Shown here one piece after another: positions 9,738 through 58,341 of a DNA stretch of 64,000 nucleotides (position 1 is its first letter; each line of letters opens with the position of its first letter). The translations under genes were made by a program, and so were the position numbers. The stretch spans positions 38,130,001-38,194,000 of the forward strand of contig OX597816.1 in assembly GCA_951406725.2 (NCBI GenBank), read 5' to 3'. Origin of the DNA: Octopus vulgaris (lineage: Eukaryota). The notes beneath the pieces are model-generated. The model saw only the letters and a program-made list of their open reading frames with translations, was not told the origin of the DNA and searched no databases.

Positions 9738-9967
9738 ATTTCTTTATTACCCACAAGGGGCTAAACATAGAGGGGACAAACAAGGACAGACATAGGTATT
9801 AAGTCGATTCCATCGACCCCAGTGCGTAACTGGTACTTAATTTATCGACCCCGAAAGGGTGAAAAGCAAAGTCGACCTAGGCGGAATTTGAACTCACAAC
9901 GTAACGGCAGACGAAATACCGCAAAGCATTTCGCCCGGCGTGCTAACGCTTCTGCCAGCTCGCCGCC
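9738..9967 (-). mobile_element. SINE family B (Nin/Deu-domain-like core) with Tx1-LINE-like 3' tail, inside a (TACC)n array
   Basis: Head ggcggcgagctggcagaa; core ctttcggggtcgataaattaagtaccag; tail ttgtcccctctatgtttagccccttgtgggtaataaagaaat. Confidence 0.9.
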
Positions 9968-10414
9968 AGTTACCTACCTACCTACCTACCTACCTACCTA
10001 CCTACCTACCTACATACATACATACATACATACATACATACATACATACATAGATACATACATACATACATACATACATACATACATACATACATACATA
10101 CATACATACATACATGTATATATGGAGTTATCGTTTAGTCACAGCTGTGGGTGAATATATTCTTAAAGTCAACTCTTAGTCACTCGCGGGTACTTCTAGG
10201 TTTTATCCCTAATTCAATTCTTAACCAAATTGAAAGCGGTTTATTTTAGCAATGATGGTCTAGTCTTCAGTTACAATTTGAGGTAAAATAACTGAAATTT
10301 GATTCATTAGAAAAAAGTTAGGTCAAAATATTTGAGGTCAAAAATAGGCGAAAAATTGGCTTTGACTCAAAATATCTCAGTTATTTTAATAGAAAAGTAT
10401 ATATTAATAGTCAA

Positions 10415-10848: not shown

Positions 10849-12247
10849 ATTATTGAAAAGTTTGCAAGACGCAACGAAAATTTTAGGAAAATAAAAAACC
10901 GAATAAGTGGATATTTTACTGGTGAGTGTGTTAAATTATAAGGCACAAAAAGAAAATGACTCTCCCGAGACACAACAGAATATACTTCAACACACGAACT
11001 CACATAAAGAATCTTGCAAACCAAATCCTAAAACGAAATATATTAATAGGATTTAACAGAATGTCTTCATCGAGAAGAATCTTTTGGTGAAAACCTTGTT
11101 AAAATGTATTGGCTAGGAAAAAAAGGTTGTGTTGCTTTATATGACGAAAAAAATGGTAATTAACCCCACTATCACCATCACCAAATTGACTTGGCATTAA
11201 AATATCTCAGCTATTGTAAAAGAAAACTATACAGTAGTTGTATTCAAATGAAAGAGCGCTACGATATGAATCTTATGGTGGAAACCCTGTCAAAAAATAT
11301 TTGCTACGAAAATGTGGTGTGGCTTTCAGTGATGAAAAAAAAAGGCGATTATTTTTAAGAATGAAAATATTTTTGTCATTTTAAGCATTATAAAAGACGC
11401 TTTCTTAAAATGTTTTCGGGGTCGCTTAGCTTAATGGTACAGAACGCTCGGCGGAATTTGAACTCGGAACGTGACGACAGACGAAATACAGCTACGCATT
11501 TCGCCCGGCGTGCTAACGTTTCTGCCAGCTCGCCGCCTATATATATATATATACCTTAGCACTTTGTGAATAAATGTTGCTGTTAGTGAACATTTTTATC
11601 GCCGATTATAAGCTACAATGAATAAAGCGTTTTTGACAAAGTTTTAGCAACATCGCACATTTTTGGAGAATAGAATATCGAAGATGGTCCCCACATGCTC
11701 ATATGAAATTTTGTGTGGATAAAGCACCTCATGTCCGGTAATTTCACCGCAGAGCAAGCTCACCGTCATCAATGCACCGTTTAAAATTTTTTTCTTTCTT
11801 TCAATAAAACAATTTTTAACTATTAATGGTGGTATACTATGGATATATTTTCTCGGTAAACTCTCCTCGCGGTGAACCTTCCACACGGTAAATTGATGGC
11901 GGTGAACTTACCTGTAATCAAATACCATATTTATGACAAAGATTCTCCAGAGAAAAATTCAAGAATTTTATGGAACTTGCAGATTGCCATGTTACTTGCA
12001 GATTGCCATATTACTTGCAGATTGCCATGTTCCGGATCTAGCCCCACTCTTTACAATTTTGTTTGTCGTTACAAATGCGTTCATGCCGCAAAACTTGCTA
12101 GAGAATTTATGGAAAAGGAAAAGATGTGGTTTAAAGTGTCGATTTAGTTTTCCTAACATTGAATCAAGATTCAATTTGACCACGGTAGCTCATCGCTGAT
12201 GCCTATAGGTATGTTAAATTAACATACACTCACACATACATACTTAT

Positions 12248-14730: not shown

Positions 14731-14961
14731 ATTTCTTTATTGCCCACAAGGGGCTAAACATAGAAGGGACAAACAAGGACAGACAAACGGATTAAGTCGA
14801 TTACATCGACCTCAGTGCGTAACTGGTACTTAATTTATCGACCCCGAAAGGATGAAAGGCAAAGTCAACCTCGGCAGAATTTGAACTCAAGAACGTAACG
14901 GCAGACGAAATACCGCTAAGCATTTCGCCCGGCGTGCTAACGTTTCTGCCAGCTCGCCGCC
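14731..14961 (-). mobile_element. SINE family B with Tx1-LINE-like tail
   Basis: Near-identical to the 9738 and 57997 copies. Confidence 0.9.
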
Positions 14962-16914
14962 AATTCTGCAATTTCTTGCTGAACAACCTGGAACAATGAT
15001 TTTATATTGCATATAAAATCACTCCTTCCATCAAATCAACATTGCCTGTGCAGGTGCACAGTGTGCCCCTCGTCAGATGTTGAAGTGATCTCAGAGCAAC
15101 GTGAGATGAACTGTTTTACTCGCCTAACAACAGCTCCGTCCAGGAATCGAACTCACGAACAAGAGATCGTGAGTGCAACACCCTAACCACTAGGCTACGC
15201 ACCCTCACGGTAAAAACAATATAAGAGAGCAGGGGAAAAATGACCGCATTTGTAGAAAAAGTTTGCTCCATAATAACTATATAACAATATTTAACTTCAT
15301 TTTTCTTCGTTCAATGAGTTCAAATCTGTGTGGTCCATCTTCACCTTCCTAAGATCTATGAAATGGTGAAAGTCAAGTTGTGACTGAGTAAGACCACTTC
15401 ATAAACTCAGAGGTAGAAGCAAATGTTCAAGAGTCTAAGAAACTCTTGTGCTTGAGTTTGTTTGAATGGATATTGTTGTACAGCACTGAATCTACTTTTC
15501 AGCTATGAAACCAGTGGCAGAACAGAGGTTGAGGCAATCAGAAACCAGATACACTTCAGGTTTACCTTTTCCTAGAAGAAAGTTCTAACAAGAACTAGGA
15601 GTCCTTCACCCTCGATGGTTCATATGCTAGTTACCACATAGCTGGAACCCTAACAGGCGCTAGGGAAAATGGTGGTTAAGAGGTAGTTCCACACTCCTCA
15701 AAATGCTGGAACTCCCGTAGCAAAGACTCACTAAGGATGCAATTTAAAATCATACCCAGGAGAACATACCCAGTATTTTACGTAAAAAAATAGTCCTTTA
15801 TCAAAGTCAATCCGTTGCGATATCTGTTCAGACTCTCTGTTTTATGCATTCAAATTCTGCTGAGATCAACTTCGTTTTTCATACTGTCGATGGCTTTGAA
15901 TAAAGCACAAATTCAGTGCTGGTATACCCTTCTCTTCTTCTAGCTCTATAACATCCTGATTGTTCCACTAGATCACGGCTACTTAGGGCGACCAGAGAAT
16001 GTATCTACTTGCAACTATATGGGCACCTAAAACTGTTAGCAAAAGCAAGGTAATACTCGACTGCAAGCGATATCTATTGTTTAAATACTCTGAAGACGAT
16101 TTAATTTGCATAGGAGCAAATATAAAGCACCGCTCCCATGTAAGAGATTTCATGACAGAATTACACAATTATATAATACATACACTCAGTTATTGTTATA
16201 GAAGTGAAGTGTGATTTCTACTTTAGTGTCTATATTCAAACAAGGTTGTTAAATAATGGGGACGCGTGGCATTGCTTGACTGTTTCATGGAGATAAGAAG
16301 TAACTGCATGTACAGGATATGTGTAAATGTTGATTATGTGTGAAAGAAAATATCTTCTGCACTGCTACGTCCTGTATAGTGAAAAGTAACAATTAGGAAG
16401 TCATTAATAAGAGGAATAAAGAATGTGGGAGGCAGAACAAAACCCTGAGATACAACAGGGTTGATAGAATATTGGTATAGGTGAGCATAGTGAGCGTACG
16501 TTCGTACGTACGCCACGGTGGTGTCGGCTGGTAAGAGACATCTAATCCAATAAATCAGAATTAAGTTTATGTTGTTTAGCGCAAGATCTTTGAGCTAGAC
16601 TTTAATTATAAACGTTCCATGCAAGATCATTCACTCATTATTAAGGGTGTCAAAGGCTACATTATCCAACATGTCCTTTTCTTAGGACGGTAGGGAGTGA
16701 ATTGAGGGAGAATCGGTAGTATTTATCTCGGGTTGAACAATCACGTAGAAGCTTTGGAGTTCTGAGTGAGCAAATTTGCTAGGAAGTTCTAGTGACAGAA
16801 ACTGTTGAAGGATAAAATATGTAAAATATCTCTATAAACCATTGCCAATACACATACATACATACATACATACATACATACATACATACATACATACATA
16901 CATACATGTATAAT

Positions 16915-46313: not shown

Positions 46314-49040
46314 TGTTGTTGGCATCCTTTTTGTCTCGGGAGACAATGGAGTTGCGCATAAAATAATCTAGTCCGGCTTTTACATTTCATGTCCTAATAC
46401 ATCTCCTGCTGTGGCTGTGTAGTCCTATCCTTGACAAACACTCTCTCTGGCAGGTGCCGCAAATGTAGCGAAGACTTTGCCTGGCTGGTTGTAATGTCAT
46501 ACTTTCTTGTTGACGTCTTTTATTGTCTTTCCATTTCTCCTCTCTCTCTATGTCATTCTTTGTGTTCCCTATTTTACGGTACGTCGCCAATCTCCACGGT
46601 TGCTGGCAACTGCTGCCCAGTTGGTAATATTGCTGTTGCAGGCATTCATGTCCCTTTTGCAAACATCCTTGTATCGTAAGAACGGTCTTCCCACAGACCT
46701 AGTGCCCCTAGCAAGCTCTCCGTTGAGTATGTCCTTGGGGATTCTGCCATCTTCCATACGGCTAACATGTCGAAGCCATCTCATACGTCTTTGTGTGAGG
46801 AGTGTAAACATGCTTGGTATTCCCGCTTGCTTGAGGACATCTTTGTTGGGGACATGATTCTGCCATTTGATGAGAAGGATTTTCCGGAGGCAGCGCAGGT
46901 GAAAGATATTTAGGCGACGTATGGAGTCGTATGGCGTCCAAGTCTCACTTCCATACAGTAGAGTGCTAAGTACACATGCCTGGTAAATCTTCATTTTTGT
47001 GGTCTTAGTCAGCGTATGGTTGTCCTATGCCCGTTTGGAGAGTTGGGCCATCACAGCAGCTGCCTTGCCAATGCGTATATTGAGCTCAGTATCAAGGGAT
47101 AGGTTGTAGGTGACGGTAGAGCCAAGATAGGTAAACTTCTCCACCTCCTGTAGTCTGTGGTCTCCAATATGTTTGTTTGGGATGTTCGATGTAGCCTGAA
47201 TCATGATGTTAGTCTTCTTGAGGCTGATAAATAAGCCAAAGTTGCCACATGCTTGCTCAAAACAGTTGATGAGCCTTTGTAGGGCTTCTTCTGTGTGTGA
47301 TACCAGAGTGGCATCATCAGCAAATAGCATCTACTTGATCAGGACGCTTCTGATTTTGGTCTTGGCACGCAGACGCGAGAGATTGAACAGTTTCCCATCA
47401 CTTCTACTGTGCAGAAACACTCCATCATCTGATGTCACAAAGGCATGTGACAGCAGCAGCGAGAAGAAGATGCCAAATAATGTAGGAGCAAGGACACAAC
47501 CTTGCTTTACCCCATTTTTTATTTGGGAGGCGGCTGATGTTGAACCATTTTGCTATATGGTTCCTTACATATCATCATGGAAAGATGTGATGATCCTCAG
47601 CAGCTTTGGTGGACATCCGATTTTTTGGAGCAGGATGAAGAGGCCTTTTCTACTTACCAAGTCAAAGGCCTTTGTCAGATCAATGAAGGTCATATATAAT
47701 GGCATTTTCTGCTCTCTGGACTTCTCCTGAAGTTGGCGTATGGAGAATATCATGTCAATAGTTGATCTGCTTCTTCTAAAGCCACACTGCGATTCTGGAT
47801 AAATTCGAGAAGCAAGCAGTTGCAGCCTGAGCAGGATAATGCGAGCAGAGGCCTTTCCAACAGTGCTTAGAAGAGATATTCCACGGTAATTGTTATAATC
47901 ACCACGGTCACCTTTGTTTTAGTAAAGCGTAATGATGTTAGCATCCCGTATATCCTGAGGGACTGTACCCTCTTCCCAGCACTGACACAGAAGCTCATGA
48001 ATGTGCCGAAGCAGGATGGTGTTTTTGCCGGTTTTGATGATCTCTAAGGGGATGCCGTCTTTTCCCAGAACCTTGTTACTTGCTAGGGAGTCAATAGCCT
48101 TGGTGAGCTCTGCTATAGATGGCAGACTGTCAAGTTCACACATGACTGGCAAGATCTTGACACCCTCGATTGCAGCCTCAGCTACCGTGGTCTCTCGTGA
48201 GTAGAGATCCTGGTAGTACTCCACCCATCTATCCATTTGCTTGCTTTGGTCCTTGATGAGATCCCCAGTAGTTGATTTCAGAGGGGCTGACTTGGTTGCG
48301 AATGGACCGAGGGCCTTCTTCAAAACGGCATACATCCCACGGGTGTCGCCACTGTCAGCAGCTGACTGGATACTCTGACAGATGTCCTGCCAATACCAAT
48401 TTGCACAGCGTCTGGCAGTCAGTTGGGTTTTATTTCTTGCCTTTCTGAGTTCTTCGAGTGACTTTATAGAAGAATCACTCTTATAGAAGAATTACATCAG
48501 AGCTGCACGCTTTGTTTCGATAACTGTTTCCAGCTCTGAGAGCCCAGCACTGAACAAAATCTGGGTTTTGCCTTTCTCACATGCCGAAAGTATCTATTGA
48601 TGTGGTATACAAAGCTTCCCTGATATAATTCCACCTACTTTCAGCAGAGGTGGTTGGGCAGCTATTGAGGGCAACTTTGATAAAAACAGCAAAACATTGT
48701 CGCAGTGTAGGGTCGGAGGTTCTGGCAGTGTTAATGCGTGGTCAGCCCATTTTCTTGGAGTGATGGACTTTTTAGGTAGAATCCTTACCCTGCTTCATAT
48801 TAGTGAATGATCTGTGTCACAATCCGCGCTGTGGTAACTACGAGTCAGTTGAACAGTATTCAGAAAGGGTCTTCGTGTAATGATGAGATCCAGCTAATGC
48901 CAGTGGTGAGATCTTGGATGTCTCCAAGATGCCTTGTGGGATGTCTTGTTGGCAAAGAATGTGTTAGTGATGCACAGGTTATGGTAGGTGCAAAATTCAA
49001 GTAGTCTCTGGCCATTGTCATTCATGTTGCCAATACCAAA
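46314..49040 (-). mobile_element. 5'-truncated, decayed RTE-clade LINE (APE endonuclease remnant plus RT)
   Basis: FIDLTKAFDLVSR, GVKQGCVLAPTLF, MLFADD, FTYLGS, LLYGSETW, SRIGLHSHSRRC; 3' tail ctccattgtctcccgagacaaaaaggatgccaacaacaa. Confidence 0.93.
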
Positions 49041-49172: not shown

Positions 49173-49686
49173 ATACATATATATTTGGAATTTACAAAAG
49201 AAACGAACAAAAGACGAAGACGGGTGTGTAAACAACAAACAGGTTTATTAGTTTAACGCTCCGGACTTAGGAAAATTTATATAGGGAGTACTGCTAATTT
49301 TAAAATTAGATATAGGGGACACAAGAATTCATTTATTCACCCCTATATAAAAAATTTCAGACATTTTAGTATATTGTAAGCATAAATATTTAGCGTCTTA
49401 TAATTTTCTTAAACTTTAAAATATAATTTTTTAGAATATAAAAGCTTTTTGAAAATACGGTCCAGTTAGATGATTAAATCCAATGAACACTTATGCACAA
49501 ACCTGTAATCTTAAATTTTTTTTTCTTTATAGTTGTATATATCAGACAGAATGGAATATTCCCATTGGCTATTATTTGCATGATTAACTGAATTTACCTT
49601 TCAATGATTTTCATTTCTTAGTTAAACGTGGTAATCGTCTTGAAAAACTTGAGAAAATTTTCGATATTCAAAAACTGAACTTTCAC

Positions 49687-49699
49687 CAACTGAATACTC
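49687..49699 (+). repeat. Target-site duplication copy 1 (caactgaatactc); also at 51436-51448 and 56604-56616
   Basis: Exact 13-bp sequence at all three junctions. Confidence 0.92.
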
Positions 49700-51435
49700 G
49701 TCAGTGAAATTTGTTCTGTGTAAATTGATTTAATATCGCGCGAGGCGTTTGCCTCCACGTGTGGAAACCTTCCGAAAAAGGTGAATTGACCCTCTAGTCA
49801 TGGCGACTTACGCGGGGGTCACCGGGAAAAATAATGATTCGTCGATAATCATAAAGGATGTTTTCTTTGAGAAGGATAAACTCAAAGAATATGAAAAGCT
49901 CTTCAAAAGGGAGGGTGATAGCGTGAAGCTAATCCCCCCCCCCCCGCGAAAGCAAAAGAGGACAAAGAAAGCAAGACAGTGACATATAGAACCCAAGACA
50001 AAAATACGAAGAAACTGGCAAGAGTGGAGATAGCCGAAATTGAAAAATGTCTGGGAGACATAATGGGGAAAACAACCTACGTGAGTAGAGGCAAGAAATT
50101 TGGTACGGTGGAGGTGAGATGTGCAACGGAAGAAATTGCAGCCTCACTGGCTACCACTGTACTAAGAGCCGAAAAATTTACAATGTGGCCCTCATACAAG
50201 GGAAGAAGAGGGGTCCGGGTTAAAATCCCGAATATACCCCCAGAAGTGAAAACAGAATGGCTGGCAACAGCTATTCTAGGAGCAGCAGAAGAGGAAGTGG
50301 AGGTGGAATCCTTTAAGGAGTCCAACGCGGTAAACTGGAGAGGATATGGGGTAGAACTGTGTTTGATGGCCACAAAAGAGGACATCGAAAGGTTCCCCTA
50401 CAGAATTGAAATTGAAGATGAAAAAACCCTCAGTGTAATTGTAGAGGGAAGAAAACCAAACTGTTACTTGTGTGGGACAAGGGGGCACATTAAAAAAGAG
50501 TGCCCGTTATACGAATTCGTAGCGGAGTGCGAGCAGGAACTTGAAGAAAAGAAGAATACGGTAAATGAAAAAGAAAACATAGAAAAGGAAACAAAACAAC
50601 AAGAGAAAGGAAATAATAAGTCAATGAAGGAAAAAGAAATAAAAGAAAAGAAAGAAATAGAACCAAAAAAAAAAAAGGAAAAAGAAACAACAGGAAAAAA
50701 ACAAGAGAGAGATCAGAATGAAACGAAAAGAAAAGACGGCACACAAAAGGAAAAAGAAAAGGAACATAAAACACAAGAGAAAGAGAGAAGAGAGAAAGAA
50801 CCAAAAAGACAAGAGAAGGAAGGAGAAAGAAAAGAAGGCAAAAAGAGAGAAAGAGAGAAACAAAGAGAGGAGAACAAGGAAGAAATAAGCCCGAAAAGAA
50901 AAATGAAGGAAAACGTAGGACGGAAACAAGATTACTGCTTCTACAAGTTAGTAACCTTCCATTTCTGCCCTGAAATGAAAGACTTGACATGTAATACGGA
51001 GGGACATATATGGGTCAACAGGATGACCGATCAGTGGCAGGAGACTGCTCTAATCCCCGAAGAAAGAGTCGCTGAGTTCCTCAGAGCTGCCGGAGAGAGT
51101 GTAATATTTTACACGAGTGTTCGAGTGAGAGAGCGGCTGCCTGAGGGCTCAGTGATGGACTTTAGAGAATTGAAAGCTATTATGGAATATGTATAGAATT
51201 GTGAGAGGAAAAAAAAAAAAAAAGAGAAAAACGAAAATATTGTGAAATATATGTGACGAAAATGTAACCTCTGGATTCCGGGGATCGAGTGGACATTTAC
51301 ATCTCATTGTAAATATTCTTTCATATGTCATTTTTTACTTTTATTTTTTCCTTTTCTTGTCATTCGCTTTCTTATTTTAAGTTCCCCGATTGTATTGTCC
51401 CCTCTATGTTCGCCCCTTGTGGGTAGTAATAAAAT
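49700..51435 (+). mobile_element. ORF1-only non-autonomous Tx1/L1-type retrotransposon ('half-LINE')
   Basis: Bounded by 13-bp TSDs; single ORF1, no ORF2; last 48 nt identical to the neighbouring LINE's 3' end. Confidence 0.85.
49800..51196 (+). CDS. Tx1-type ORF1 (gag-like zinc knuckle, Lys/Glu-rich region); one frameshift in the C12 run at 49934-49945
   Basis: MATYAGVTGK start; CYLCGTRGHIKKEC (CX2CX4HX4C); homologous to ORF 51660-52967. Confidence 0.82.
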
Positions 51436-51659
51436 CAACTGAATACTCGTCATAGTGTATAGTGAGTTATTATATTTTTGCCTTGTGTATATTTTCTCCG
51501 TTGTGATCTACTGTGTGTCTAGCCGTCTTTCTGTATTGTTGTACAACTATTGAAGTCGGCCTTCGTGCGAGGGCTTCGTGTTGGTGTTCCCCCCTCCGTG
51601 GGGGAAAAACTATCATTATCTTGGTTGTGCCAAAGGCTTGTTAAAGCCAGTTATCGGAG

Positions 51660-52967
51660 ATGGAATCCCCCATCTCATATTCACCTGTGACTAGTGATGC
51701 AGGATCACCGGCGGTGTCGCCAAAGAAAAAAGAGGCGGGGTCGCCAAAGAAAAAAGATATTCCAGCACCAGCGAAAAAATTTTCGGAAGTAGCTGGTAAA
51801 AAAATTAAAAAAATTAATGTCGAAAACCTAAAGAAACATGCGGACTGTGTGTCAAAAGAGGGCACGGAAGTAACCGTGGCTTCAAACGCCCAAAAACAGG
51901 AAGAAATTACAAAAAGAATAATAATTTATAAGACCTTCAATACAACAAGCAGATCAATACAAAAAATAGAGGAGAAAAAAATCGAAAATTGCTTAAAGCC
52001 GATAATGGATAAGATCACATACATCAATCGAGGGAAGAAATACGGCCCAGTGGAGGTGAGATTCACAACAGAGGAGGTAGCTAAAAAGCTATCCATGGAA
52101 CCAATAAAAGCGGAGGATATTGTTCTCCTAACCCTGTATAAAGGCAAAAGAACTTCAAAGATCACTATGAATAATATTCCGCCAGAAGCGGATGCCGAAG
52201 TTCTGGTGGCAGCAGTTATGGTAGGCCTGGAGGAAAAAATAAACATCCTCCAGGCCACTGTAGAGGAGGAAGAATTCTGGAAAGGGCAGCGGATAATAAT
52301 AGCCATCCAGGCAGAAATACAAACCCTGGAGGAAATTCCAGAGACTCTAAAAATAAGCGAAGAAGATAGAGTCACAGTCTTCGTAGAGGGCAGAAAGCCG
52401 AGGTGCTTCGGCTGCGGTAAGAAAGGGCATGTAAGGGCAGAATGCCAACCCAAACCGCAGGAAGCAGCTCAGCCAAGTGGAAAAGCAGAAGAGGTGCCAT
52501 CAGAAACAGCGCTGGGCGGCCCAGGAGGGACGGCTGAAGGTGTGGAGGTGACAGAGGCAGCGGAACCAGCGGCGGAGGAAAAAAAGAGCGAGGAAACGAA
52601 AAAGGAGGAGGGGTGGTCAAAAATCACTAGAAAAAAAAGAAAAACTGAAACCACCCCTCCCAAAGTAAACCAAAAGAAGAAAAGAGAGTCGTTGAACTCA
52701 TTTATGGCCGTTAAGGCCACGAACAATAGACTCGGTAATGTGTTGGCAGCGATGGCCAAAGTAGAAAAAATAGGGAGGAAAAATGACTATGTATTGTACA
52801 GAATAGGCCGGAAGGATTACGGACGGATAAAGTCCGAATTTTTTCATGACGTAGGCCCGCTCAGAATGGATATAACATCTCCATATATATTCGAGGGCCT
52901 GCGTCAGACTCCCCCACGAGGCCCAGAAAAAGAGACAAACAAAAACCGAACCACTGATATAAGGTAA
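51660..52967 (+). CDS. Tx1-type ORF1 nucleic-acid-binding protein (435 aa)
   Basis: Intact ORF; zinc knuckle CFGCGKKGHVRAEC; stop lies 3 nt before the ORF2 ATG. Confidence 0.88.
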   Translation: MESPISYSPVTSDAGSPAVSPKKKEAGSPKKKDIPAPAKKFSEVAGKKIKKINVENLKKHADCVSKEGTEVTVASNAQKQEEITKRIIIYKTFNTTSRSIQKIEEKKIENCLKPIMDKITYINRGKKYGPVEVRFTTEEVAKKLSMEPIKAEDIVLLTLYKGKRTSKITMNNIPPEADAEVLVAAVMVGLEEKINILQATVEEEEFWKGQRIIIAIQAEIQTLEEIPETLKISEEDRVTVFVEGRKPRCFGCGKKGHVRAECQPKPQEAAQPSGKAEEVPSETALGGPGGTAEGVEVTEAAEPAAEEKKSEETKKEEGWSKITRKKRKTETTPPKVNQKKKRESLNSFMAVKATNNRLGNVLAAMAKVEKIGRKNDYVLYRIGRKDYGRIKSEFFHDVGPLRMDITSPYIFEGLRQTPPRGPEKETNKNRTTDIR

Positions 52968-52970
52968 GTA

Positions 52971-55900
52971 ATGGATTACATTTATGTTGGTTGTTTGAAT
53001 GTGCGCGGCCTGGGAGCAGGCTGGAAGCAAGGTCGCTTCCTGCATGATATCAGGTCGCGTAATTTAGATGTTATTGTTGCTACAGAAACCTGGTTAGAGG
53101 GGCCAAGAGGTCTACTCCCGCTGTTTGACGGCTACGAGAGTTTTTTCTCTCCTGGCAGTCCTACAGGCGGGAGAGGGGTGTTGGTCCTATTAAAAAGAAA
53201 CCGGGTTTCTGAGAAAAAGTTAATTTTTGCAGATCCAGAAGGTAGGCTGGTCGTCATGGATTTGACGTTCAGTAATGGTAAAGTTATCAGACTGGTTGCA
53301 ATTTACGCACCCAACAGTAAAAAAGGGCAAAGTGATTATTTTCGTGATCTAGAAAAATTTCTTGGTACTTCGCATTCATTAGTGGTGCTAGGAGACTTTA
53401 ACACAATTTGCAAAGCGGATGTAGATTGTGTTGGCTCGTGTCCAGATAGGAGAGGTAACAGTGGCTTCATGGAACTGCTAAGCCGCTTTGAGCTAGCAGA
53501 TCCGTATAGGCTGGAATTTCCGAACGCTCCATTGTGGACATGGTCAAACAGCGACGGATCTTCCAGGTCATATATAGATAGAATTCTAATTAGAAAAGTA
53601 GACAGTAAAATAGCTAAGTGTCCACAGTTTTACCCGATCAGCTACAGTGATCATAAAATGGTCACTTGACATAGATAAGGTTAGAAATAGAGGATCCGGT
53701 TACTGGAAACTTAATACGTCCCTTTTGGCGATTAAGGAGTACAAAGACCGGATTAGGAACATAATTCAGAGGGCACTATCCGGTACCATCATTAATAACA
53801 AATGGTGGTACGCCCTCAAACGAGCCATCAAGTTTGAGTCTATTAGATATAGCATAGGAGTAGTGGCTAGAGAGGCTAGAGGGGATAATACTCTAGTTAA
53901 GGAATTAGAGGAAGCCATGAAAACTGGCTCTGCGGCTCAGGTGGCGTCCAAGAGACTGGTGTTAAACCAGCACCTCGAGGCCAAACACATGGGCTGCATT
54001 GTCAGGGCTAGAATCCGCCATATGGGATGTGAAGGAATCAACGCCGTGAGATGGGCCCGAGTGGTGGAAGCTCAGCATGGTAACAGTGCCACGATTCGAT
54101 CTTTGACGAACCAACAAGGTGAGTTGATAAACGAACCCGAGGAGATGTGTGAGGCCTTTCAGGAGCACTTCGCTCAGCTTTTCGGTGAGTGCGGCGGACT
54201 GGATAGGAGGGGGCCTTTACGGACCTACTCGACGGGCTGCCGCGCTTATCGGGGCGAGATGCGGAGGGCTGTGAAGGGCCAATCACGCCTGAGGAGGTGT
54301 TTAAGGCAATGGCGGACTGCGGCGCAGGCAAGGCGCCGGGTTTGGATGGTCTACCCTATGAGTTATATAAGAGTATGCCAGACTTGTTCGGGCACCTACT
54401 GGCGGAGGTCTATGCGAACTGGCAGCAGAACGGGCTTATACCCAGATCTGTGCGCCGGGGAGTAGTGACTCTCGTCAGAAAGGACCCGAGCAAGGGGGAG
54501 TGCATTGATAATTTCAGGCCCATCACTCTGCTAAACACAGAGTTGAAGATTTTGGCCAAAGTGTTATCGAAAAGATTGGCGCGTGTCGCGGATGGTCTGA
54601 TCGGAGAGGCACAGACATGTGCCGTTCCGGGCAGATCCATTCAGGATAATCTCCATCTAATGCGGTACACTATAGAGGGGTTTAATAGTGATTCTGGCAA
54701 GGGTGGGGTACTGGTCCATTTAGACCAATCTAAAGCCTTTGATAGGGTCGACCATCGTTACCTGGTATCTGCCCTGGCACAGTTCGGGCTGAGCCTTGGC
54801 TTGCTCAGGTGGATTATCCAAATGTATGATAACATCGACTCGGTAGTTCGGGTGAACGGCTTCTTGTCGAAGCCGTTCAAAATCAAACGCTCGGTTCGTC
54901 AAGGGTGTCCGCTCTCCCCGCTTTTGTACGTGATGGCTCTAGAGCCATTACTGCGAAAACTGAGCGGCATCCCGAGACAGCCGGGTAATGGAAAATCAGT
55001 GTCAGCGTACGCGGATGACATCACCATCATCGTAACCGAAATGGACCACCTATGTAAAGTAGGCAAGGCCATAGAGGTTTACGAGACGGTGACAGGAGCA
55101 AAAGTTAATCGCGAAAAGTCAGTCGGCTTGCAACTCGGCACCTGGAGAGGCAAGTCGATGCCTCCTGACAGCGTCGTGGGACGTTGGACGGAGGGTCCGA
55201 TTAAATTGCTAGGGGTCTGGTTCGGTCCAGACCTCCAAATAGAGAAGAATTGGAGCGAGGTAACGAGCAAGGTGGCTGCAGTAGCCAAGACCTGGTCTTG
55301 GCGGTGGCTATCCTTGAAAGGGAGGGCGGAGGTGGCCAATGTGTTTATCGCATCGGTTATCACCTACCGCCTTTCCGTCGTTCCTTGCCCCGATTCGTGG
55401 TTGACCAAGTTGGAAAGACAGCTCTTCTACTTCTTGTGGAAGGGTAGGAAACCACTTGTGAAACGCTCTACTTGCTGTCAACAACCGTTAAAGGGTGGGC
55501 TAGGGATGCCTTGGCTGATGATGCGCAGACATGCGCTGAGGTTAAGACATCTGTGGCTCTACCTGGATGGTGAACGGGTGTGGTCTCCGTTAGCAAAACT
55601 GATGTTTCCCAAGTTCACTAGTTTCGGTGGATGGGAAACCTGGTTGAATCGTAGATCGAAACTCGGTACTTGGTACACGGAGTGTCGCAAGGCTCTCCTG
55701 CTATTCCGTCGCTCGGGCAACGCCTGCGGTGGGGGTTCCACCACATTCTTCTATAGAGGGTTGGTAGAGGCGGAATGTGAAGATACCTTGGGGGAAACCC
55801 TAGGTCTCGACGATAATCAGCTGGCCAGTCTGTTCCGACGTACGTTCAAGCCGAGGACACTGGACAACTTCCAGAAGTCTCTGGCATGGCAATGCTACAG

Positions 55901-56360
55901 AGGAGCTCTACCTGTTCGGGATAAACTCGCAAGGCACGGTGGCCAAGACAGTCCGATATGTCCAAGATGCGGGCGGGATAGGGAAACCGTCCCGCACGCT
56001 ATTGTTCATTGTCCGGACGTGTCTGAGGTGTGGGTTTATGCCGAACAGCTGTTGTCAGGTACACGAAGAGTACAGCTGTCGACTGAGTCGATTACAAAAA
56101 TTGACCCACCGGATTTCCTCGTGAATGAAGGTAAGTTTCGTTTTCTCGTTGTAGTAGCAATTGCGAAAGAGGTGATATGGAAGACGAGAGTGAAAGGTTT
56201 ACAGTCAGGCAAGTTCATCTCCGGCCCTGGTTTGATGAATTATTTCATCTTTCACCTGAAAAGGAAGATAGGGCTGGAGAGAATATGCCTGACTAGGAGA
56301 GTGTATGAAGAGCGATGGAAAGATGTGGCACGAAAGTTGCGAGTGAAAGATACAACATAA
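52971..56360 (+). CDS. ORF2 APE endonuclease / reverse transcriptase / CCHC finger; two frameshifts (~53665, ~54210)
   Basis: CLNVRGL, VLGDFN, SYIDRILI, SYSDH; KAPGLDGLP, FRPITLLN, LDQSKAFDRV, VRQGCPLSPLLY, AYADD; CPRCGRDRETVPHAIVHC. Confidence 0.93.
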
Positions 56361-56813
56361 ATGTAATACCAAGCGCAACCAAAAGTATCAGTGGGGAGGC
56401 GGGGCTCGTGGGGTCCGAGCTAAACCCGCACCCACTCCACCTGTAATGTCTTCCGGTCTGTTTCATCATTCGATTTTGTGTATATTATTGTAATTTCATG
56501 TTATTTTTAAATCCGATTTTTTGTAAAAACCATCCGTATGTCTGACCCCACATCAGATTGTATTGTCCCCTCTATGTTCGCCCCTTGTGGGTAGTAATAA
56601 AATCAACTGAATACTCACCATGTAGTGCCTTAATGCTTTTTGCTGGATTTTACCTCGAGAAAGGAACCCCGAGGAAGGGGGGCTGAATTTCGAATACTTC
56701 GTACAACCACTTTTCTGAAACGGCTGCAGGTTAGGAAAAAAATTTTAATCGCCTCTTTCAATTTAGGTTTTTATTTTTCATGTTTATATTCGTATTTCAT
56801 TGTTATGTTTATA

Positions 56814-57379
56814 TTGGGTTGTCCGGAAAGTTCGTTCCGATTTTTAAAGGAAAGTAAAGGTCACTAAATACTTGCCATTACATTTTTAATCAACCAAATC
56901 TGAACCATTTCGTTGAACAATACGTCTCCATCTTTCCTTTACCTTGAAAATATCCTCTTCCCAGAATAGGGGTGGTTTCAAGGCAAAGAATTCGTCAAGG
57001 TATCTTTTTACGTCATCTAAGGAATTGAAATTTTTACCATTAAGACTTTTCTGCAGAGACCTGAATAAGTGGAAATCCAAAGGAGCAATATCTGGGGAAT
57101 AGGGAGGGTGGGGGTAACACATCCCAGCCGAGCTGCAGCAATTTTTGTCTGGTTCCCAAAGCATCAAGTGCCGAAAATGAACTTTCTCATCTTTTATTTT
57201 AAAGGGTTACAGAATTAACACAAGTTATAGGAACATAAACCTTCTTCCACGAAAAGATAGCTTAAACTGTGCTCTAAATGGAGGTGTAGTCAAATCCTAT
57301 TTTATGGACTCAAACATGTTCTAAAATAAGTCGAAAGATAAGCTACTATAAATCGGCATGAACTTTCCGGACAACCCAA
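56814..57379 (-). mobile_element. Internally deleted mariner element
   Basis: TIRs ttgggttgtccggaaagttc / gaactttccggacaacccaa; TA flanks; HPPYSPDIAPLDFHLFRSLQ. Confidence 0.92.
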
Positions 57380-57628
57380 TATTTCTATATTTTTATCATG
57401 AAACTCTTAACATAAATACGTGTATATTCGTATGGAATAATACCTCATGTACTACATCTGAATTTTCTTGTCTGAATGTTTTAAGACAAATGTACGAAAT
57501 TTTTATCGTATACCACATTTTACTAATACTTAGCTCATATACGGAGACAAAAATGTTGTACTATATACTGCAGGTTATCTCCATTAAAATTCTCGTATTA
57601 TATACATTATATATATATATAATATATA

Positions 57629-58341
57629 CACTGGCGAAAATAAATTTAAGACCGATGATAAAAGTTCTATTTCTTACAAAATATTGTTACTAGTCTTTTG
57701 CCGATCTTTATATTGACCAGTCTCCGAGTATAACTTCCACGCTTGCACGCAAGCCGGTTTACTGCACTTTAGTTGCTTGCTGATGTTCGAAAAGGAAACT
57801 TTTTGCTGTAATATACGATTTTTGCTCTCGTGACTGGACTAAGGCTACGTATTAATAAATTGTATAATAACATTAAATTATAACTTTATATGGTGCATTT
57901 AGGCTCGTTGTGTGACCATCCATTTTGGCCAAAAAAATTGCATACATATTACATGGTCTTAAACTAATTTTGCCGGTAAATTTGAAACGTTTATATTACG
58001 TTCTGAGTTCAAATTCCGCCGCGGTCGACTTTGCCTTTCATCCTTTCGGGGTCGATAAATTAAGTACCAGTTACGCACTGGGGTCGATGTAATCGACTTA
58101 ATCCGTTTGTCTGTCCTTGTTTGTCACCTCTATGTTTAGCCCCCTGTGGGCAGTAAAGAAATATATATTAATTTAGTATTAGAATTATTCAAGTTGTATA
58201 AAAATTGTATGCATCATTCGAAAGAGAAATAAATTTTGCATAAGGTGTAAAAGATATAAATAATTTGTATGGTGTTAGTAACAAAATATTTTTTAAGAAA
58301 TAGAACTTTTATCGTCGGTCTTAAATATATTTTCGCCGGTG
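57629..58341. mobile_element. Non-autonomous Tc1/mariner-type element with ~65-bp TIRs, containing a SINE
   Basis: cactggcgaaaataaatttaagaccgatgataaaagttctatttctta and its inverse ending tattttcgccggtg; TA flanks. Confidence 0.85.
57997..58163 (+). mobile_element. SINE family B, 5'-truncated, with Tx1-LINE-like tail
   Basis: gcctttcatcctttcggggtcgataaattaagtaccag core; ttgtcacctctatgtttagccccctgtgggcagtaaagaaat tail. Confidence 0.9.

Follow-up and report, generated by a model that had tools for sequence, protein, structure and literature searches.

The window analysed here is a 64,000-nt stretch of Octopus vulgaris DNA in which two retroelements, termed A and B, lie head-to-tail on the plus strand (Table 1). 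A is 1736 nt long and is made up of a 5' UTR, an ORF1, a 3' UTR and a 48-nt tail, and B is a LINE with two ORFs. Both lie between the two arms of a repeated target sequence, and a SINE-like repeat is found elsewhere in the window.

Table 1. Features of elements A and B, of their insertion site and of the SINE-like repeat (positions in the window)
Feature	Position	Strand	Basis or remark
Left arm of repeated target sequence	49250..49686	.	several contigs, high depth, three DNA runs
13-nt repeat copy 1, left of A	49687..49699	+	inferred left target-site duplication
Element A	49700..51435	+	head-to-tail with B
A 5' UTR (100-nt leader)	49700..49799	+	opening four bases are those of B
A ORF1	49800..51196	+	about 463 codons, frameshifted in window copy
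Two predicted RRM-type domains	49946..50458	+	AlphaFold2, Foldseek
CCHC zinc knuckle	50459..50506	+	Pfam PF00098, E 1e-4, above cut-off
K/E-rich tract	50531..50911	+	57% K+E over 127 aa
A-family-specific C-terminal domain	50912..51193	+	85-100% identical in 18 O. vulgaris proteins
A 3' UTR, unshared part	51197..51387	+	A-rich, then T-rich
A 48-nt tail	51388..51435	+	identical to that of B; has AATAAA, no poly(A)
13-nt repeat copy 2, between A and B	51436..51448	+	sequence match
B, full-length Tx1-type LINE	51449..56603	+	domains, anatomy
B ORF1	51660..52967	+	open, with CCHC knuckle
B ORF2	52971..56360	+	APE endonuclease, RT, zf-RVT (Pfam)
B 48-nt tail	56556..56603	+	identical to that of A
13-nt repeat copy 3, right of B	56604..56616	+	inferred right target-site duplication
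Right arm of same target	56617..56810 (end approximate)	.	joints 49587-56643 and 49703-56634
SINE-like repeat	9739..9968	-	tail version at end, 87% over 47 nt
SINE-like repeat	14731..14962	-	tail 83% over 47 nt
SINE-like repeat, 3' part	57996..58162	+	carries tail
SINE-like repeat, partial copies	near 11447, 16917, 39774, 41150, 42592, 62269		window matches

An earlier reading made from the letters alone (hereafter the sequence-only reading) had described A as a 5' UTR, an ORF1 and a 3' UTR of some 240 nt with no trace of an ORF2, and this layout was borne out: the 3' UTR totals 239 nt, and a tblastx comparison of A with the ORF2 and UTR of B revealed no ORF2 remnant (best E 0.28). The window copy of A thus codes for ORF1p without ORF2, which fits a non-autonomous LINE of the type that keeps ORF1. 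The start of A is uncertain by 4 nt, as the four opening bases common to A and B may belong to the target. Beyond these bases the two leaders are unrelated, with 67 of 500 shuffles scoring as well as the real alignment.

The same reading had reported a single ORF1 with a zinc knuckle. A coding ORF1 and the knuckle are indeed present, but not as one open frame in the window copy, where the frame opened by the ATG at 49800 ends in a stop at 49980; a run of 12 C (49934-49945) puts this ATG out of register with the long frame (49922-51196). When contigs from four of the 24 listed sequencing runs, three of them taken as DNA, were mapped to the window, the C run was 5 nt shorter in contigs of all four runs (6, 11, 2 and 1 contigs), which places the ATG in frame. 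The first 45 codons from this ATG resemble the start of the relatives (P0047, E 4e-5).

Among Pfam domains, only zf-CCHC was found in the ORF1 of A, and NCBIfam gave nothing useful for the ORF1s of either element. With a 41-row alignment, AlphaFold2 predicted the region of residues 1-210 with block pLDDT values of 88-96, whereas the C-terminal half was of low confidence; in Foldseek, IMP3 and SFPQ/NONO gave the best matches with their tandem RRMs, at an E of about 3e-5 and low TM-scores. The predicted architecture of the A protein is therefore RRM-RRM-CCHC, followed by the K/E-rich tract and by a C-terminal domain specific to the family. Four residues of the K/E tract that the O. vulgaris models have are missing from the window copy (50660-50680). 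In six relatives, the 50 aa on the knuckle side were 69-88% identical and the K/E tract 30-62%, a difference that fits constraint on the core, though identity is a measure distinct from dN/dS. The listed differences fell on third codon positions in 5 of 7 cases in A and 8 of 14 in B, numbers too small to be used.

Compared with the ORF1 of B, that of A showed 65 identities in 186 positions (35%, E 8e-38) in an alignment that reaches the knuckle and stops there. The peptides quoted in the sequence-only reading and the knuckle are both present, and the remark of that reading that the C-termini show no obvious similarity also holds, as no significant match was detected between them. A profile comparison of the A-type and B-type C-termini was marginal, with 1 of 60 column shuffles as good and a probability of 0.7%.

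Element B has the anatomy of a Tx1 element, with an ORF2 that carries an APE endonuclease, an RT and a C-terminal zinc-binding motif (PF03372, PF00078 and PF13966) and an ORF1 with a CCHC knuckle, the latter weak in Pfam (E 0.07), yet aligned with that of A. Its best Atlas cluster is the automatically named 'Transposon TX1 149 kDa protein family' (score 0.97), and among solved structures its RT is nearest to L1 ORF2 (E 4e-44). We thus refer to B as Tx1-type, an assignment based on the automatic cluster name and the anatomy. In the window copy the ORF2 of B is broken near 53664-53669 and near 54210, positions at both of which the contigs differ from it. Any helper would therefore have to be another copy of the B family and, as A is itself frameshifted, neither neighbour is able to act as it stands. 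The stop of the B ORF1 and the start of its ORF2 are 3 nt apart and are overlapped by a sequence, AG/GTAAGT (52960-52975), that we take to be splice-donor-like.

The tails of A and B are identical at 48 of 48 nt, exactly as the sequence-only reading had stated, so that A has its 3' end in common with a LINE of autonomous type. Exact identity of the two 3' regions extends to 61 nt at most, as the tail is followed in both by the 13-mer CAACTGAATACTC, which has three copies in the window and none further (0.003 expected by chance). Upstream of the 48 nt, the UTRs of A and B share a weak T-rich match alone (1 of 500 shuffles as good). That reading had further regarded the tail as strictly conserved with the partner; identity between A and B stands, but the tail is not private to them, as the SINE-like repeat carries it at 83-87%. 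When the tail was folded for a stem-loop, all six folds were no better than those of shuffled sequences (z between -1.3 and +0.7). The identity may have been kept either by strong selection for recognition by ORF2 or by recent exchange with B. In contrast to this 3' end, the 5' part of A is not derived from B, as the leaders are unrelated, the ORF1s are only 35% identical and a clade of both ORF1s is rejected (see below), although a counterpart other than B could have been its source.

The left flank was covered at high depth in three runs, and the target is therefore itself a repeat. One X1 contig joins 49703 to 56634, representing an empty-site variant without A or B, and six contigs from three runs join 49587 to 56643. 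In another X1 contig, the tail enters the same target 24 nt further to the left, whereas in one X2 contig it is followed by an unrelated 21-nt spacer and then by a truncated B-type copy, so that targeting is not absolute. The insertions tallied are thus two at one 13-mer, one 24 nt away and one at an unrelated spacer; for comparison, the criterion for target preference given for Tx1 elements is more than 20% of flanks (PMC4494074).

Several identities were considered for the target and rejected. For an RNA gene, Rfam gave no match at gathering score in the window, where only low-score, microsatellite-driven matches were found near the site; for a tRNA gene, ARAGORN found no tRNA; and for a TIR transposon, no inverted repeat was detected between the left and right arms. 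On the minus strand, the insertion site reads ATG directly followed by GTGAGT, presumably a splice-donor-like motif. To the right of the target, at about 56812-57382, there is a very high-copy element with 36-nt inverted ends (92%), which by its look we take to be a Mariner-type MITE.

A HMMER search among 1.84 billion representatives yielded 480 matches to the ORF1 of A at E <=0.001. A first quick tree was built from the core (42 rows kept of 162 matches plus two window rows) and a second one from 23 hand-picked rows, selected after the first tree. A grouped with O. bimaculoides P0003, to which it is 53% identical, and with two unnamed proteins, at SH-aLRT values of 99 in the 42-row tree and 98 in the 23-row tree, and B grouped with O. 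sinensis P0037 and O. vulgaris P0034. When a clade of A and B was forced on the 23-row tree, the likelihood was 42.8 log units worse and the clade was rejected (p-AU 0.0013). The proposal of the sequence-only reading that A represents an old ORF1 lineage evolving on its own is corroborated by this grouping and rejection. The split between O. vulgaris and O. bimaculoides has been put at 13.3-33.5 Mya (PMC13282606) and, if inheritance was vertical, the ORF1 of A would have separated from that of B before both species did.

Regarding copy number, all of the first 10 matches to the ORF1 of A were named Octopus proteins. In O. vulgaris, 18 distinct proteins end at the last residue of A and are 85-97% identical to the window copy; together with one frameshifted model they correspond to 23 accessions on at least seven scaffolds. 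Clusters are suggested by five different A sequences found in a span of seven consecutive accessions, and some identical consecutive accessions may be isoforms. The sequence-only reading had depended on A being neither a single-copy element nor the product of a one-off internal deletion; the former is contradicted by these 23 A-type gene models, and the latter can be discarded for the ORF1, which is multi-copy. Length variants among contigs at 51336-51362, in the 3' UTR of A, show further copies. Metagenome and viral contigs yielded no further locus, and neither did genome contigs, matched against the SINE form of the tail; octopus DNA would not be expected in any of these collections.

Contig depth is no copy number, but its profile along the elements differs. 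The bin that contains the end of the A ORF1 and the 3' UTR reached 0.90, 0.78 and 1.25 times the median depth of the A ORF1 in the three DNA runs, whereas the ORF2 of B was covered at 8.8, 10.2 and 14.5 times its ORF1 in the same runs. In a long autonomous LINE, an excess of 3' cover is expected from 5' truncation. The similar depth of the 3' part and the ORF1 of A is therefore what a short element would give, and does not suit the end of a long LINE of which many copies are 5'-truncated. The ORF1 of A was 2.4-4.0 times deeper than that of B in the three DNA runs, and A was deeper than the target arm by a rough 3-8 times.

Searches for an ORF2 attached to other copies of A were also negative within their scope. 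There was no joint from the A ORF1 into an ORF2 among the best 15 of 389 joints; loose ends were examined for the best 24 of 4229, with rows at the A-rich run after the stop (51198-51238) left out. No longer fused ORF1-ORF2 protein was found among 760 candidates, a weak test, as none of 237 proteins, B-type ORF1s included, matched the ORF2 of B. A single model, P0194, joins an A-clade exon to a piece of endonuclease, and this piece matches positions 48909-49037 (E 5e-8) and not B. The latter positions belong to a decayed LINE of another kind on the minus strand (47451-49037), with endonuclease pieces and an RT 29% identical to that of B, which by its look we take to be RTE-like. That the other copies of A also have no ORF2 is supported only indirectly, by the depth profile, the whole unit of ORF1, UTR and tail being seen as DNA in the window copy alone.

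The tail-bearing SINE-like repeat matches B for a further 16 nt upstream of the tail (1, 1 and 10 of 500 shuffles as good) and shows no match with A in that region (249-413 of 500 shuffles as good). Its copies are dispersed, and none in the window lies at the 13-mer. By eye it appears to be tRNA-derived, although ARAGORN found no tRNA. Stringent recognition rests on the sharing of tails between SINEs and LINEs (PMC3747384, PMC4824008). Judging from the shared nucleotides, the Tx1-type family may have this repeat as a SINE partner; a different family whose tail is similar could also serve it.

A family of 89-aa ORFs is represented by dozens of O. vulgaris models (P0016-P0026, P0182-P0231), often with two or three copies spliced consecutively and at times spliced onto A-type exons (P0004, P0018, P0022, P0023, P0194), which points to one more tandem element within the same arrays. 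The ESM Atlas gave no usable match for the 89-aa protein, and profile comparisons of this family with the C-terminus of A-type (7 of 60 column shuffles as good) or B-type proteins (20 of 60) were negative. The 89-aa and A-type models CAI9729171-72 adjoin the CFAP65-like models CAI9729173-74 (P0232-P0235, P0197, P0022), so that one array may sit in or beside that gene.

A, with the anatomy of its window copy, its identical tail, the three 13-mers, its multi-copy ORF1 and its separate ancestry, is a multi-copy octopus retroelement that codes for ORF1 only, is probably ORF2-less in its other copies too and is probably copied in trans by the ORF2 of the B family through the shared tail. By such a mechanism, A would be transcribed as a unit and its RNA would produce its own RRM-RRM-CCHC protein, which would coat that same RNA. 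The tail on the A RNA would be recognised by the ORF2 that an intact member of the B family provides from another locus, and the endonuclease of this ORF2 would cut the repeated target and prime reverse transcription there. Every insertion would regenerate the 13-mer, by which A and B would stack head-to-tail and the arrays would grow.

A different origin would be from an autonomous LINE that has an A-type ORF1 and is present in this genome, or was so until recently; A would be its internal-deletion derivative and B a mere tail-sharing relative, a situation paralleled by TAHRE for HeT-A. Repeated loss of ORF2 is documented in Drosophila telomeric elements (PMC13534243), there are several near-A ORF1 families that may or may not continue into an ORF2 (P0004, P0009, P0010 and P0070, 69-88% identical in the knuckle-side 50 aa) and the depth of ORF2 relatives, far above that of the B ORF1, implies many unseen ORF2 families. 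Nevertheless, the 3' end of A is covered at the level of its ORF1 and no higher, its UTR has no ORF2 remnant, the best 15 of 389 joints include none between the A ORF1 and an ORF2, and the endonuclease piece of P0194 goes with the LINE remnant at 48909-49037 instead of B; we consider this origin unlikely.

Amplification at the DNA level, by tandem duplication or within the repeated target, could also have followed one or a few insertions of A, the tail being acquired from B by local gene conversion. This would agree with a target that is itself repeated, with A models in runs of consecutive accessions and with an A/B identity that begins abruptly at 48 nt, upstream of which only the weak T-rich match is found. 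It is, however, very unlikely in view of the presence of A copies on at least seven scaffolds, in sequence subgroups and mostly in frame to the same stop, of the roughly 3-8 times greater depth of A over the target arm, and of the entry of the tail into the target at a second position. Homopolymer-length differences in the window copy (the C run and A runs) could be sequencing errors, but a single deletion event or a faulty assembly as the origin of the locus is hardly credible given the clean 13-mer junctions, the 23 gene models of a named O. vulgaris assembly and the cover of all 30 bins in the four runs, and it is already refuted for the ORF1 of A.

If A is copied in trans by the B family, an extension that we regard as quite unlikely would have one Tx1 ORF2 serving three passengers through one tail, namely its own family, an abundant SINE and an old ORF1-only radiation that builds mixed head-to-tail arrays at a single site. 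The dispersal of the SINE versus the stacking of the ORF1 elements would then point to the ORF1 protein, and not the endonuclease alone, as the Tx1 targeting factor, and such a role, if true, would explain why the half-element retains its ORF1. ORF1-only LINEs keep a protein gene, whereas SINEs manage without one; here a single genome has one short tail in common to an ORF1-only family, to the LINE that probably helps it and to a SINE-like repeat, so that the roles of tail and ORF1 in copying and site choice are separable by experiment. The case would also extend ORF1-only parasitism to the Tx1 group, provide the abundant SINE-like repeat of octopus with a candidate partner LINE and mark as transposon ORFs dozens of models now named 'hypothetical protein' in O. 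vulgaris.

In the literature searched, no ORF1-only Tx1 element and no cephalopod case was found; Repbase, Dfam and subscription journals were outside this search and may already include the family. In the paper on O. vulgaris repeats, the L1-Tx1 families number 80, 13 of them recently active (PMC13282606); in the accessible portion of that source, neither 'ORF1' nor 'non-autonomous' occurs in the text, and both terms and 'HAL1' are absent from its one supplement.

Elsewhere, non-autonomous LINEs that code for ORF1 are reported from the Jockey (HeT-A), L1 (HAL1) and CR1 (Ag-Sponge) clades (PMC5786205). HAL1 of mammals is, like A, a non-autonomous LINE derivative that codes for ORF1p alone (PMC5753468, PMC5786205), but it comes from the L1 clade, the mammalian members of which recognise poly(A) in a relaxed way (PMC3747384), whereas A lacks poly(A), ends in a sequence tail that its partner also has, codes for an ORF1 with predicted tandem RRMs and a CCHC knuckle, and lies in tandem at a fixed site. 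A was therefore not taken as a HAL1 proper: the named relatives of its ORF1 are octopus proteins with a CCHC knuckle, its partner is TX1-named and poly(A) is missing. HeT-A and the ORF1-only telomeric elements of Drosophila are found, like A, head-to-tail with an autonomous partner, and such lineages arise repeatedly, can give rise to new ones and can persist, in clades of two to six families (PMC5537684, PMC13534243). HeT-A belongs to the Jockey clade, lies at chromosome ends and has a long 3' UTR and poly(A) (PMC5537684, PMC13534243), in contrast to the interstitial position of A, its 239-nt UTR, its 13-nt duplication and its Tx1-type partner. An assignment of A to the HeT-A type was rejected on the interstitial site within a repeat, the 13-nt duplications and a partner RT that is nearest to L1 among solved structures.

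TRE5-A.2 of Dictyostelium is site-directed and has an ORF1 as does A, together with a large deletion in its ORF2; its trans-mobilisation has been demonstrated, and a short 3' module is essential for it (PMC3159450). However, TRE5-A.2 derives from TRE5-A.1 (PMC3159450), whereas the ORF1 of A is only 35% identical to that of its neighbour and there is no ORF2 remnant. Within the Tx1 group, Tx1 in Tx1D, Tx1-Mar and SINEU offer the same features as A and B, that is, insertion into another repeat, tandem copies around the target duplication and non-autonomous dependants (PMC4494074); the dependants described in that source (SINEU) are non-coding and none codes for ORF1, in contrast to A. The R2/R1 SIDEs of Drosophila are likewise non-autonomous lineages of old age that lie among R1 copies, in tandem arrays split by the target duplication, but they code for no protein and target rDNA (PMC3414825), whereas A codes for ORF1 and sits in a repeat without an Rfam match. 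A thus represents a real ORF1 lineage, old and multi-copy, and its tail was either taken over from a Tx1-type LINE or has kept pace with the tail of one. In its way of working A resembles HeT-A, HAL1 and TRE5-A.2 without being a member of any of them, and its life strategy is known in other clades of LINEs.
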